From Escherichia coli (GTDB lineage: Bacteria; Pseudomonadota; Gammaproteobacteria; Enterobacterales; Enterobacteriaceae): a stretch of 64,000 nucleotides of DNA. The stretch lies in NCBI RefSeq assembly GCF_003334355.1, contig NZ_QOWP01000008.1. One strand, 5' to 3'. A program made the position numbers and the translations under genes. This document shows, piece after piece, positions 5,551 to 57,030 of this stretch (the stretch's first letter is position 1; each line of letters starts with the position of its first letter). The notes below the pieces were generated by a model. It saw only the letters and a program-made list of their open reading frames with translations. It did not search any database and was not told the origin of the DNA.

Positions 5551-6369
5551 ATGAAACTGACAACACATCATCTACGGACAGGGGCCGCATTATTGCTGGC
5601 CGGAATTCTGCTGGCAGGTTGCGACCAGAGTAGCAGCGATGCAAAACACATTAAAGTTGGCGTTATAAATGGCGCAGAACAAGATGTCGCGGAAGTCGCT
5701 AAAAAGGTGGCAAAAGAGAAATATGGCCTCGATGTTGAACTGGTAGGATTTAGCGGTTCGTTGCTACCGAACGATGCGACAAATCATGGCGAACTTGATG
5801 CGAATGTCTTCCAGCATCGACCCTTTCTTGAACAAGATAATCAGGCGCATGGTTATAAACTGGTAGCGGTGGGAAATACGTTTGTCTTCCCTATGGCGGG
5901 TTATTCCAAAAAAATCAAAACCGTGGCGCAAATAAAAGAAGGCGCGACAGTGGCGATCCCCAACGACCCGACCAACCTTGGTCGCGCACTTTTACTGTTG
6001 CAAAAAGAGAAGCTAATTACTCTGAAAGAGGGAAAAGGGTTATTACCTACCGCGCTGGATATAACCGATAATCCTCGTCATTTGCAGATTATGGAACTCG
6101 AGGGGGCGCAGCTCCCGCGCGTACTGGATGATCCCAAAGTTGATGTGGCGATTATCAGCACCACTTACATTCAGCAGACCGGGCTTTCTCCGGTGCACGA
6201 CAGCGTATTTATTGAAGATAAAAATTCGCCGTATGTGAATATTTTGGTGGCACGGGAAGATAATAAGAATGCAGAAAACGTGAAGGAATTTCTGCAATCT
6301 TATCAATCATCCGAAGTCGCTAAAGCGGCAGAAACCATCTTTAACGGTGGCGCGGTGCCTGGCTGGTAA
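5551..6369 (+). CDS. nlpA: lipoprotein-28 (NlpA/MetQ family methionine-binding lipoprotein), 272 aa
   Basis: 272 aa; signal peptide plus lipobox LLAGC at residues 19-23; periplasmic binding protein-like. Confidence 0.8.
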   Translation: MKLTTHHLRTGAALLLAGILLAGCDQSSSDAKHIKVGVINGAEQDVAEVAKKVAKEKYGLDVELVGFSGSLLPNDATNHGELDANVFQHRPFLEQDNQAHGYKLVAVGNTFVFPMAGYSKKIKTVAQIKEGATVAIPNDPTNLGRALLLLQKEKLITLKEGKGLLPTALDITDNPRHLQIMELEGAQLPRVLDDPKVDVAIISTTYIQQTGLSPVHDSVFIEDKNSPYVNILVAREDNKNAENVKEFLQSYQSSEVAKAAETIFNGGAVPGW

Positions 6370-6372
6370 TTC

Positions 6373-7296
6373 TCACTCATCCCGCGCCGGACGATTTATT
6401 TTTCTGGCGCGGCGACGGGAATCCATTGAAATCAAAATTACCGATGACAGAATCAGCAGCGTTCCCAGCCAGTCCGGTAATGTGAACGTGATCCCCAGCA
6501 ACAGCAAAGAGAGTAGCGCGCTACTTAATGGTTCTGCACAGCTCAAAATGCTGGCTTTTGGACCGCCAATTAATTGTGCTCCTTTCAGGTACAGACTAAA
6601 TGTCAGGGACGTACCAATGACGATCAAATAAAAAAACGCCAAAATCAAACTGCCGTTAACGACAAAGTTTGTCCCTTGTCTGGCATAAAAAGGCAACAGA
6701 ATCAGACCGCCGATCAGCATACTCCAGCCGACGACAGACAACGTGCCATAGCGGGCAATTAGCGTTGAGGGATAGGTGGTATAGAATGCAGCAGCAAATG
6801 CCGAGGCAATGCCCCAGAACAACGCGGCAGGAGAGATCGATAATGACGTCGGATTACCGTGTGTCACCAATAAAAAAGTCCCGACCAGCGATGTCAAAAT
6901 AGCGCAGAAAACCAGAATGCCCGGGCGCGATTTACGCACCAGTGAGAACCAGGCGACGATAATCGTCGGTGAGAGGAATTGCAGCACCGTTGCCGTGGCT
7001 GCGTTCGATTTTTCGATGGTTAGCAAAAAAGTGAGCTGTACAGTTAGCGCGCCAACCACGGAAAAAATCAGCAGGCTAATGGCATCTTTATGATTGTTAA
7101 TAATAGAAAAGATTTTATCGCCATGAACAAATGACAGCGTCAGTAGAATCAAACCGGCGAATATCAAACGCGTCATAGTCAAAAACTGCGACGACATCTG
7201 GCTTTGCTCCATGATGTATTGCGCGCAGACCCCTGAACTTCCCCACAACACGGCGGCAATCAGAACGTTCAGCATCCCCTTTCTGGTGGAACCCAT
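6373..7296 (-). CDS. yicL: EamA/DMT family inner membrane transporter, 307 aa
   Basis: ORF track 307 aa, about 10 TM segments, position between nlpA and setC. Confidence 0.7.
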
Positions 7297-7406
7297 TTTT
7301 CCCTCTGCATACTGTTTTGTCGTTTATGTATGCAGGCATGATAGCAAAAATGGCGAGGATGGCTCTGTTTGCGCCACGCCGATTTTTCTTAGCCCAGACT
7401 GGTGAG

Positions 7407-8591
7407 CTAAATATCTTTAATAAACAGCAGGCAAATTATCGCAATACCCAACATCCCTATCGCCAGCCAGAACAACGCATGGTAGCTCCAGATTTCAACC
7501 ATAATTCCGTCAACAGAGCCGGCGATAATCCAGCCGACGCGTGAAGTATTTGCATATAACGTTGTCGCAGAGCCTATTTTTTCAGGCATCAGGTCCTGAA
7601 ATTAAAGCATGCCGATACCACAGAGAATACCAAGGAAGATGGCATTAAGAATTTGCAATTCCAGCTCAACCGCCGGAGTCGTCGCCATGAGTACGCTGGC
7701 GTAAAAACACATTCCACTCACGATAGCAATGAGCATTAATAGTCGCTTGCCAATACGTTTCATGTAATAGCCTGCGATTAACATCATCGGAATTTCCAGA
7801 CCGGCAGCGATACCAATCATTTCTCCAGCCAGTTTATCGGTTAGATGCAGTTCATCAATAATAAATAGCGGCATATTTATCATGTAGAGATTATTCGCCG
7901 CCCACATCATTGAACAGACCACAAAAAGTAGCCGCGTATCCCGCTTCCTGTGGGTGGAGGGTAAAATTTCTACGGGTTGGGTAACGACAGGAATATTTCT
8001 TTGTATTGATGGCAAAAACAACCAGACTATCAGCCCGCAAACAACAAATGCGATGGCAGCGGTGAGATACATCACTTTAAAACTAAATCCCATTGCCAGT
8101 TCATAAGCGAGCGGTGGCCCGATAACCCAGGCAAGCGAGATCTGAGCACGTAAAAATGTACTGAACATGACCGTCTCACGGCCTGTTCTGTCGGCGTGTT
8201 CACGGGCGAGGGCGAACATTTGCGGGTTTGCGGTGGAAGCAAAACTACTCAGAAGTACGCCCGTTGAGAGGAGAATGAAGTAGTTGCGATTCCACGCAAA
8301 AAGCGTGCAGGCCAGCACTCCAAATAAGCAACATAGCAGAATCAGTAATTTACGGTCGCCTTGTTTATCGGAGTGCCTTGCCAGAAATTGACTGACCAGA
8401 ATTCCCATAATAGCGCTACCGGTGAAGAAAAAACCTACCATTATAGGACGGGCTTTCAGTTCATCTGCGAGGAATATACTTAGGGTAGGAGTCTGAAGAG
8501 CGCCCGCAATACCCGTCAGAAAGGCGACAAGTAAAAATGCCGCGGCAGTGAGATCAAGTATTTTTGATGGAGTGGTAGCCGTTTTTTGCAT
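7407..8591 (-). pseudogene. setC: sugar efflux transporter SetC homolog interrupted by one in-frame TAA (codon 330 of a 394-codon frame)
   Basis: ORFs 7602..8591 (329 aa) and 7407..7589 (60 aa) are in the same frame, separated only by TAA (minus-strand 7602-7604) plus four codons (F Q D L); 329+1+4+60 = 394 codons, the length recalled for K-12 SetC. Confidence 0.6.
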
Positions 8592-9227
8592 TCTTCTGAA
8601 TCACCGGGCGAAAAAATATAACTGAGTTACAAATAAGTACCAGTCGAATGAGTATTGTATTAAGAATTTTTGAGTATCGCTGATACAACCAGAAAGCAAT
8701 GCTAGCGCAATATTATAGGGCCAGCAATTGAGATTATTAGCAAAAGCATGTTAAGAATTAATTACTGAATTTATATATTAATTATAGTAAGGCAATGAGC
8801 TATTTTTGATAGTAAAAATAAAACAAGTTGATTTGATATATTAAATGAACAAATTAATCTTGATGGCAGTCTGATTATTGGTGAAGTTTATAGTCAGTTT
8901 TTTTCGCCAGCGGTTAAAGAAATAGAATAGTCGTATAAAAAAGGGTGTTCTGGGGCGAGTAAAACAACATCTTCACCTTAATGGCGATACAGTTGGCTGA
9001 GAGTCAGCAGGGGGGCAAATCACCTGCAAATAAACACGGCGCATACTGGCGTGAATATCGCGGATGCGTTCGAGGACAGAAGAACCGACAGGCGGATTCT
9101 TCAGCCGCTCATCGTCCATCACAAAACCTTAGACCAGGTATTCCTGAAGCCGATTGAATATTGAGCAGTAGAAAATATCTGGATTGACAGTATTACAAGG
9201 GGTTGGAGAACGTCAGGAGAGGCATTT

Positions 9228-9322
9228 TGGCGGAAGATCACAGGAGTCGAACCTGCCCGGGACCGCTGGCGGCCCCAACTGGATTTGAAGTCCAGCCGCC
9301 TCACCGGAGACGACGATCTTCC
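9228..9322 (-). tRNA. selC: tRNA-Sec (selenocysteine tRNA), 95 nt including CCA
   Basis: Reverse complement of 9228-9322 reads GGAAGATCGTCGTCTCCGGTGAGGCGGCTGGACTTCAAATCCAGTTGGGGCCGCCAGCGGTCCCGGGCAGGTTCGACTCCTGTGATCTTCCGCCA, the recalled E. coli selC sequence. Confidence 0.92.
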
Positions 9323-9614
9323 GCGCCTCGATTGCTACATGGAGGCGGGGCGCATTATAGCTACTTCCTTGAGTTTCTACATCCCCCAGATCAGTTTTTT
9401 CCGCCTAATACACGCAGCGTATTATCACGAAAGCATTATAGTTCATATAAAACCCATATTTTACAATGATATATGAGCGGAATTAACGCTACCACGATCA
9501 CATAAAACAAGAATCATAAATTAATAACCAGATATCGGAATATTCGCTCTCACAGGGATGGTTTACAAAATGCGTTATCGGTCTCAGCACCCCTATAGCA
9601 TCAAGGAAAAGCAG

Positions 9615-10997
9615 ATGAAGAGTGAAGTGTTGTCCGTTAAAGAGAAAATTGGTTATGGCATGGGAGACGCCGCCAGCCACATTATTTTCGATAACGTAAT
9701 GTTATATATGATGTTCTTTTATACCGATATTTTTGGCATTCCTGCCGGTTTTGTCGGAACCATGTTTTTGGTCGCTCGTGCACTGGATGCGATTTCCGAT
9801 CCTTGCATGGGGTTGTTGGCCGATCGAACGCGCTCTCGCTGGGGTAAATTTCGTCCGTGGGTACTGTTTGGCGCACTGCCATTCGGGATCGTCTGTGTAC
9901 TGGCCTATAGCACGCCAGATCTCAGTATGAACGGCAAAATGATCTATGCAGCAATTACTTACACCCTACTTACCTTACTTTATACCGTCGTCAATATCCC
10001 TTACTGCGCATTGGGTGGTGTAATCACCAATGACCCGACTCAGCGTATCTCGCTGCAATCCTGGCGTTTTGTGCTGGCGACCGCGGGAGGCATGCTTTCT
10101 ACTGTTCTGATGATGCCACTGGTTAATTTAATTGGCGGTGATAATAAACCACTCGGTTTCCAGGGCGGTATCGCGGTCCTTTCCGTGGTGGCATTCATGA
10201 TGCTGGCATTTTGTTTCTTCACCACTAAAGAACGCGTTGAAGCACCACCTACAACAACGTCTATGCGGGAAGATTTACGTGATATCTGGCAAAACGACCA
10301 GTGGCGGATTGTCGGTTTACTAACCATTTTCAATATCCTGGCGGTGTGCGTACGCGGTGGGGCGATGATGTATTACGTCACATGGATTTTGGGCACGCCG
10401 GAAGTGTTTGTCGCTTTTCTCACCACTTATTGCGTGGGTAACCTGATTGGTTCCGCACTGGCAAAACCTCTGACCGACTGGAAATGTAAAGTCACTATCT
10501 TCTGGTGGACGAACGCCCTGCTGGCAGTGATTAGCCTCGCGATGTTCTTTGTTCCCATGCAGGCCAGCATCACTATGTTTGTCTTCATCTTCGTGATTGG
10601 TGTGTTGCATCAACTGGTGACACCTATCCAGTGGGTAATGATGTCCGATACCGTCGACTACGGCGAGTGGTGCAATGGTAAACGCCTGACCGGGATCAGT
10701 TTTGCTGGCACGCTGTTTGTGCTCAAACTGGGGTTGGCCTTCGGCGGCGCTCTTATCGGCTGGATGCTGGCTTATGGCGGATATGATGCGGCAGAAAAAG
10801 CGCAGAACAGCGCCACGATTAGCATCATTATTGCGCTATTCACGATTGTTCCGGCGATCTGTTATTTGCTGAGCGCGATTATCGCTAAACGCTACTACTC
10901 ACTCACGACGCACAATCTGAAAACCGTTATGGAACAGCTGGCTCAGGGTAAACGCCGTTGCCAGCAACAATTCACCTCTCAAGAAGTGCAGAACTAA
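9615..10997 (+). CDS. yicJ: GPH/MFS family sugar:cation symporter YicJ-like, 460 aa
   Basis: ORF 9558..10997; ATG 9615 (MKSEVLSVKEKIGYGMGD) gives 460 aa; melibiose-permease-like; forms operon with the downstream alpha-xylosidase. Confidence 0.75.
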   Translation: MKSEVLSVKEKIGYGMGDAASHIIFDNVMLYMMFFYTDIFGIPAGFVGTMFLVARALDAISDPCMGLLADRTRSRWGKFRPWVLFGALPFGIVCVLAYSTPDLSMNGKMIYAAITYTLLTLLYTVVNIPYCALGGVITNDPTQRISLQSWRFVLATAGGMLSTVLMMPLVNLIGGDNKPLGFQGGIAVLSVVAFMMLAFCFFTTKERVEAPPTTTSMREDLRDIWQNDQWRIVGLLTIFNILAVCVRGGAMMYYVTWILGTPEVFVAFLTTYCVGNLIGSALAKPLTDWKCKVTIFWWTNALLAVISLAMFFVPMQASITMFVFIFVIGVLHQLVTPIQWVMMSDTVDYGEWCNGKRLTGISFAGTLFVLKLGLAFGGALIGWMLAYGGYDAAEKAQNSATISIIIALFTIVPAICYLLSAIIAKRYYSLTTHNLKTVMEQLAQGKRRCQQQFTSQEVQN

Positions 10998-56786: not shown

Positions 56787-57030
56787 TGCGACAACCTCAT
56801 ACTCAAGAGTCAAAATTTGCGTAATTTTACTACAGCTGAATCGATAAAATAGCCTCTGAAGATCAAAATATACGACCGCTCGCGGCAAGCCGATGCCAGA
56901 TTTGCGCTTTTTTTTCGTCGTGCCCCGCAAAATTGCATTCCAGTTAACGCGCTGGCTGTATTTGCCGCACCGCGCAGGTATACTCCTTTCCTGGTTTTTT
57001 TAATCACTACGTCGGGAGTTGTTACCCCCC

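Follow-up and report, generated by a model that had tools for sequence, protein, structure and literature searches.

A recent nonsense mutation very probably inactivates the putative sugar exporter gene setC in a narrow Escherichia coli lineage

Introduction

SetC (YicK) is a putative sugar exporter of Escherichia coli, known chiefly as a homologue of SetA and SetB. Among MFS transporters, it falls into the SET family of sugar exporters (TC 2.A.1.20). K-12 cells deleted for setC are viable, the only change being a stronger signal from a reporter of intracellular arabinose; the signal falls upon mild over-expression, and strong over-expression is toxic (PMC3429515). SotB (YdeA) is also an arabinose exporter of E. 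coli (PMC3429515). The setC gene is dispensable, and a literature search linking setC to selC and to pseudogenes returned no publication.

Here, we analyzed setC in a 64-kb stretch of E. coli DNA (referred to below as the window), in which an inspection of the bare sequence had noticed an in-frame TAA codon cutting SetC at residue 329 of 394. This original prediction considered the stop to be either a recent nonsense mutation or a sequencing error. Based on comparisons with complete genomes, public contigs and the protein family, we consider it very probable that the stop is a real and recent mutation, c.990T>A (p.Tyr330*), of one narrow lineage, which effectively renders the strain a setC null and is tolerated.

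Results

The reading frame of setC in the window runs on the minus strand and can be divided as follows.

7407..8591, minus strand: setC (yicK, orthologue of b3659), 394 codons plus the native stop; pseudogene by virtue of one internal stop
7605..8591, minus strand: 329-codon N-terminal piece of setC, still translatable, covering TM1 to most of TM10
7602..7604, minus strand: premature TAA at codon 330; ancestral codon TAT (Tyr)
7590..7601, minus strand: TTT CAG GAC CTG, encoding Phe331-Gln332-Asp333-Leu334; these codons follow the stop, precede the next ATG and are part of neither ORF
7407..7589, minus strand: 60-codon C-terminal remainder, Met335 to Ile394, covering TM11 and TM12 and ending in the native TAG; orphaned by the upstream stop

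Translated in one piece from 8591 to 7407, the frame comprises 394 codons with a single internal stop at codon 330. The minus-strand ORF at 7602..8591 encodes 329 amino acids and ends in the TAA at 7604..7602, inside the interval 7599-7607 given for it originally, while the 60-codon ORF starts with an ATG and runs from 7589 to 7410, its stop occupying 7409..7407. The two ORFs are in the same frame and are parted by the TAA and the four codons TTT CAG GAC CTG, exactly as had been described, and the codons sum up accordingly (329 + 1 + 4 + 60 = 394). The length of 394 codons, originally given for K-12 SetC, agrees with that of setC in K-12 MG1655 (b3659; 1185 nt, i.e. 394 codons plus stop).

Window setC differs from K-12 setC at 5 of 1185 nt, giving rise to three codon differences (T255A, Y330* and M385I). 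The lesion is a single transversion in the third position of codon 330, c.990T>A; the mutated base is window position 7602, a T on the plus strand and an A on the gene strand. Beyond the TAA, the gene contains neither a frameshift nor a second stop. M385I (in the region of 7437) is shared with intact alleles such as that of strain 13P484A and must therefore be an ordinary polymorphism older than the stop. T255A (in the region of 7829) is likewise an ordinary polymorphism relative to K-12.

The neighborhood of the gene is the same in the window, in K-12 and in other genomes: tRNA-Sec (selC), a rhuM/yicT remnant, setC, yicL and nlpA. The two features upstream of setC are:

9228-9322, minus strand: tRNA-Sec gene (selC), detected by Rfam and by a tRNA scan
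8988-9149, minus strand: pseudogene remnant of the RhuM family (yicT in K-12), between tRNA-Sec and setC, common to K-12 and close relatives

The remnant has the appearance of a scar left by an old island associated with selC. Near-identity to the K-12 gene and its position beside selC and yicL identify the window gene as the setC orthologue, and an internal stop in a frame that is otherwise intact, and uninterrupted in the orthologues, identifies it as a pseudogene by nonsense mutation. Rfam and the tRNA scan of positions 6000-10000 detected tRNA-Sec alone, lying 640 nt upstream of setC, and no RNA element that could be tied to the stop in setC. In a scan of positions 7200-9400 for promoters and terminators, no signal exceeded what shuffled sequence would give, and setC and yicL had no terminator between them; the scan is uninformative with respect to polarity.

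Codon 330 of setC reads TAT in K-12, in 13P484A and in strain PSS-12. In addition, E. coli C has an intact setC of 1185 nt with TAT in a scan of the site. A 1.5-kb query spanning the setC region found matches in 4,296 of 5,426 complete RefSeq E. coli genomes, none of them identical to the window. The best match, in 13P484A, shows two base differences, one upstream of the gene at 8766 and the other at 7602 (TAT versus TAA); the stop base is thus the sole difference between the intact setC coding sequence of 13P484A and that of the window. An 81-nt query centered on the stop site was covered to at least 80% in 3,794 of the 5,426 genomes, the best full-length matches being 98.8% identical with one mismatch. 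Moreover, a 55-nt megablast query, designed such that each 28-mer seed has to span the SNP, had no match, i.e. the TAA allele is absent from the 5,426 complete E. coli genomes. Comparison with setC of other E. coli strains, which the original prediction had proposed, thus identifies TAT as the ancestral codon. A SetC naturally ending at residue 329 was not found, the site being TAT-type in about 3,790 genomes.

The gene carries no other disabling change, an intact and near-identical allele exists, and none of the complete genomes has the stop. For these reasons, the comparisons support the view that the stop arose recently and is confined to one lineage, in keeping with the earlier distinction between a recent nonsense mutation and an ancient pseudogene. 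The SNP is a handy private marker for this small lineage.

The TAA allele, GCTTTAATTTCAGG, is not peculiar to the window. We found it in a 41.9-kb Logan contig of run ERR4578542, the same contig being present in six samples, in a 13.8-kb contig of run SRR3823860 and in the NCBI assembly GCA_012531255.1 (DABAWU010000006.1). Altogether, no fewer than seven further sequencing runs share this base with the window at the level of assembled contigs, as does one NCBI assembly, a TPA assembly that may derive from one of the SRA runs. Over 6.2-7.0 kb, the contigs carrying TAA match the window at 100% identity, which extends to longer flanks in GCA_012531255.1 (17,589 nt) and SRR3823860 (11,922 nt). PSS-12 differs from the window at nine sites in the stretch where the TAA contigs are identical to it. 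The stop was thus seen in contigs 100% identical to the window and in none of the complete genomes. Literature searches for the accessions ERR4578542, SRR3823860, GCA_012531255 and DABAWU found no mention of them.

Both the exact 329-residue product and the exact 60-residue orphan ORF (in its Ile385 form) occur in a public collection of 15 billion proteins. The 329-residue product is found on 24 contigs; 8 of the 10 listed end 0-2 bases from codon 329, as expected of partial gene calls, and these eight were discounted as evidence for the stop. In GCA_012531255.1, the broken gene is called as two proteins, a 279-residue MFS protein with a later start and a 60-residue "sugar transporter" (HAH2850488.1). 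The 60-residue orphan ORF is listed as a separate gene in this assembly and in Logan contigs.

Among complete genomes, PSS-12 (NZ_AP027697.1) is nearest to the window. It is colinear throughout the 64 kb and differs by 16 substitutions and a single homopolymer indel of 1 nt. According to its PGAP annotation, setC is intact in PSS-12. When the window was translated at the 58 complete CDSs of PSS-12, only setC showed an internal stop or a frame problem. As originally stated, setC is thus the only gene visibly disrupted, provided that full-length genes are considered; the statement does not extend to the short rhuM/yicT remnant described above.

Seven of the 16 substitutions are non-synonymous or nonsense (adeD R/G, adeQ T215M, setC M385I, setC Y330*, yicC N19S, waaG A50E and, in a GT8 glycosyltransferase, T9S); of the remainder, seven are synonymous and two fall between genes, the direction of change being unpolarized. 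Three of the 16 lie in or just upstream of setC. The sole indel in the 64 kb concerns a run of six C residues at 57020-57025 (plus strand) immediately before the ATG of yibN, which counts five C residues in PSS-12. The run is located between a GGGAG Shine-Dalgarno sequence and the start codon; the difference may be genuine or may stem from an error in sequencing the homopolymer in one or the other assembly.

To describe what the truncation removes, we restored the 394-residue SetC sequence and compared it with TIGR00899 ("sugar efflux transporter"), the NCBIfam model of the SET family with 375 positions. Restored SetC scores 646.3 bits (cutoff 522.3) and covers positions 1-375 of 375. The encoded 329-residue piece scores 530.9 bits, just over the cutoff, and covers only positions 1-311, while the 60-residue orphan ORF matches positions 317-375. 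Judged by these profile matches, the descent of the setC product from the SET family is clear, and the predicted product is incomplete.

Among 1.84 billion representative proteins, 227 relatives were detected at E ≤ 1e-30. From full-length homologues with 25-45% identity, we built a family alignment of 84 sequences (restored SetC and 83 homologues), which served as input for an AlphaFold2 model of restored SetC (pLDDT 93.3, pTM 0.91). Each of the 83 homologues reaches at least position 392; having been picked for full length, they illustrate the normal architecture of the family and are not an unbiased census of lengths. The model contains 12 TM helices, comprising residues 14-43, 49-76, 80-100, 104-136, 140-168 and 171-192 (helices 1-6) and 212-246, 253-280, 282-300, 306-334 (TM10, also delimited as 313-334), 339-367 (TM11) and 370-389 (TM12; helices 7-12). 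The model was used in place of a simple hydropathy scan, in which TM11 was poorly resolved. When the PDB was searched by sequence, restored SetC had no relative at E ≤ 0.01, and a fold search was therefore used. In Foldseek, the SetC model aligned over its full length with the 12-TM MFS exporters NorA, SotB and MdfA, at TM-scores of about 0.77-0.8.

According to the model, a stop at codon 330 removes all of TM11 and TM12 as well as the last turn of TM10 (approximately five residues). The earlier estimate that the last one or two TM helices are lost was correct as to TM11 and TM12 and slightly understated the damage to TM10. The encoded product thus does not have the 12-TM MFS fold, retaining at most ten helices of the 12 in the restored sequence. 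The lost region is one of those that the family conserves best (Q332, 96%; G340, 95%; N348, 85%; L345, 83%; A342, 82%; G353, 81%), and conservation around Q332 amounts to 62% for F331, 63% for D333 and 67% for L334. With ten helices, the fragment would be unable to complete the C-terminal six-helix bundle of the MFS fold, and most probably the allele is null; in structural terms, loss of SetC function appears to be the likely outcome.

Loss of setC is not restricted to the window strain. About 21% of complete E. coli genomes show no match to setC and a further 12% or so show a partial match only. Independent breaks of the gene in other E. coli genomes and metagenomes include insertions of IS1 in both orientations, some of them with adjacent deletions of about 0.9-1.2 kb, one insertion each of elements belonging to the IS3 and IS110 families, frameshifts, and replacement by LEE-type (EspG side) or integrase-bearing islands at selC. 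These disrupted alleles were ascertained via the common form of the orphan 60-residue ORF and therefore represent a biased sample. Among the contigs with a disrupted setC, several breakpoints fall within about 50 bp of the Y330 stop, in the region equivalent to 7593-7646 of the window. This record shows that setC decay is commonplace in E. coli.

We also examined the sequence downstream of the stop for signals that might support renewed initiation of translation.

7594..7597, minus strand: AGGA, a weak Shine-Dalgarno-like sequence 4 nt before the ATG of Met335; only a consensus-type hint

The Met335 ATG is in frame and lies 13 nt past the stop. The predicted duplex of its AGGA with the 3' end of 16S rRNA has an energy of -4.0 kcal/mol, compared to -3.0 kcal/mol for the start of setC itself and -5.4 to -6.3 kcal/mol for neighboring genes.

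Discussion

Our preferred explanation is that c.990T>A arose in one narrow E. coli lineage, whose nearest complete relatives include PSS-12, ATCC 8739 and E. coli C. Translation of SetC would then halt at TAA-T, leaving a fragment of 329 residues in which TM10 is without its cytoplasmic end and TM11 and TM12 are missing altogether. Without TM11 and TM12, the C-terminal six-helix bundle of the 12-TM MFS fold could not close, and the fragment would most likely be non-functional and probably be degraded. Its loss would be tolerated due to SetC being a dispensable, redundant putative efflux pump for arabinose or other sugars, and we infer that this loss is neutral.

As to whether the strain in truth carries TAT and an intact setC, a single-base departure from all 5,426 complete genomes is a pattern that an isolated miscall in sequencing or assembly would produce as well. 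However, the same base recurs in the contig of ERR4578542 and five further samples, in SRR3823860 and in GCA_012531255.1, all otherwise 100% identical to the window; moreover, the change is a substitution rather than an indel and the site is not part of a long homopolymer. With several runs, two archives and different assemblers agreeing on this base, a sequencing error is very unlikely, and of the two explanations that had originally been offered, the mutation is favored. Granted that the stop is real, it might still be read through or recoded, by programmed readthrough or a suppressor tRNA, or the 329-residue protein might be a natural isoform. The presence of tRNA-Sec upstream of setC is only superficially suggestive in this respect, as tRNA-Sec decodes UGA and not UAA. 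UAA-U is the strongest and most efficient termination signal in E. coli, and the TAA-T context of the stop argues against readthrough. Nor does codon 330 have the features of a programmed recoding site, since UAA is followed by U and relatives lack a stop there; likewise, none of the 5,426 complete genomes has a stop at this position and both the family profiles and the 83 homologues continue through TM12. Taken together, we give readthrough, recoding or a natural isoform virtually no credence. An ochre suppressor may conceivably be encoded elsewhere in the genome, beyond the 64 kb covered here.

A more intriguing alternative is that translation re-initiates at Met335 and that the resulting 10-TM and 2-TM pieces assemble into a SetC that is active, partly active or altered in specificity. 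Artificially split halves of lactose permease (LacY) can assemble into an active transporter. The general point that split polytopic membrane proteins can reassemble has been reviewed (PMC3464245). In setC, the break lies near the TM10-TM11 loop and the in-frame ATG is preceded at 4 nt by an AGGA whose duplex is no weaker than that of the gene's own start. On the other hand, residues 330-334 are part of neither piece, including the 96% conserved Gln332 and the FQDL motif, and TM10 is deprived of its last helical turn. Furthermore, the ATG and the AGGA are ancestral, being present in intact alleles, and are not new adaptations, while the allele itself is rare, recent and shows no sign of maintenance. 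The gene also differs from a naturally split transporter in that the split is limited to a handful of identical isolates. We therefore regard a functional split SetC as highly improbable; if true, it would offer a glimpse, in nature, of an MFS transporter gene undergoing fission. Finally, the stop might be real and inactivating and yet have been positively selected, for instance through retention of sugar or relief from the cost of a toxic membrane protein. Independent inactivation by IS1, IS3-family and IS110-family elements, frameshifts and islands, the proportion of complete genomes with no or only a partial setC match, and the reported toxicity of over-expression and rise in intracellular arabinose upon deletion (PMC3429515) would all fit this idea. 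Yet a dispensable gene with the selC integration hotspot as its neighbor would be expected just as much to be lost repeatedly, the disrupted alleles form a sample biased by the way in which it was collected, and the TAA allele is rare. Selection for the loss thus appears rather unlikely to us.

We therefore suggest that the window strain carries a recent null allele of setC that has been tolerated. The allele is a case of ordinary pseudogenization, already present, and unremarked, in public assemblies. In the window strain, the gene should be annotated as a setC pseudogene (p.Tyr330*) rather than as a 329-residue MFS transporter followed by a 60-residue "sugar transporter". It adds one more independent event to the picture of setC as a dispensable gene, situated beside the selC integration hotspot, that has been lost repeatedly in E. 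coli. Anyone using arabinose-inducible expression or engineering sugar efflux in this strain should expect setC-null behavior. Beyond annotation and its use as a lineage marker, the stop is of little importance.

In comparison with known systems, the window gene is closest to K-12 setC (YicK, b3659), with which it shares the locus (selC - setC - yicL - nlpA) and the 394-codon frame. It differs from the K-12 gene in having TAA in place of TAT at codon 330, such that the product ends after 329 residues, and in the substitutions T255A and M385I. With other disrupted setC alleles of E. coli and Shigella, it shares the loss of the same gene and the orphan 60-residue ORF, which in many cases persists and is annotated as a gene of its own. 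However, while those alleles are due to insertions, deletions or frameshifts, the window allele is a clean single-base nonsense mutation found in 0 of 5,426 complete genomes. Among solved 12-TM MFS structures, NorA, SotB/YdeA and MdfA can be superposed on the restored SetC model along its entire length; these proteins are only 13-18% identical to SetC in sequence and, unlike the product encoded in the window, they possess TM11 and TM12.
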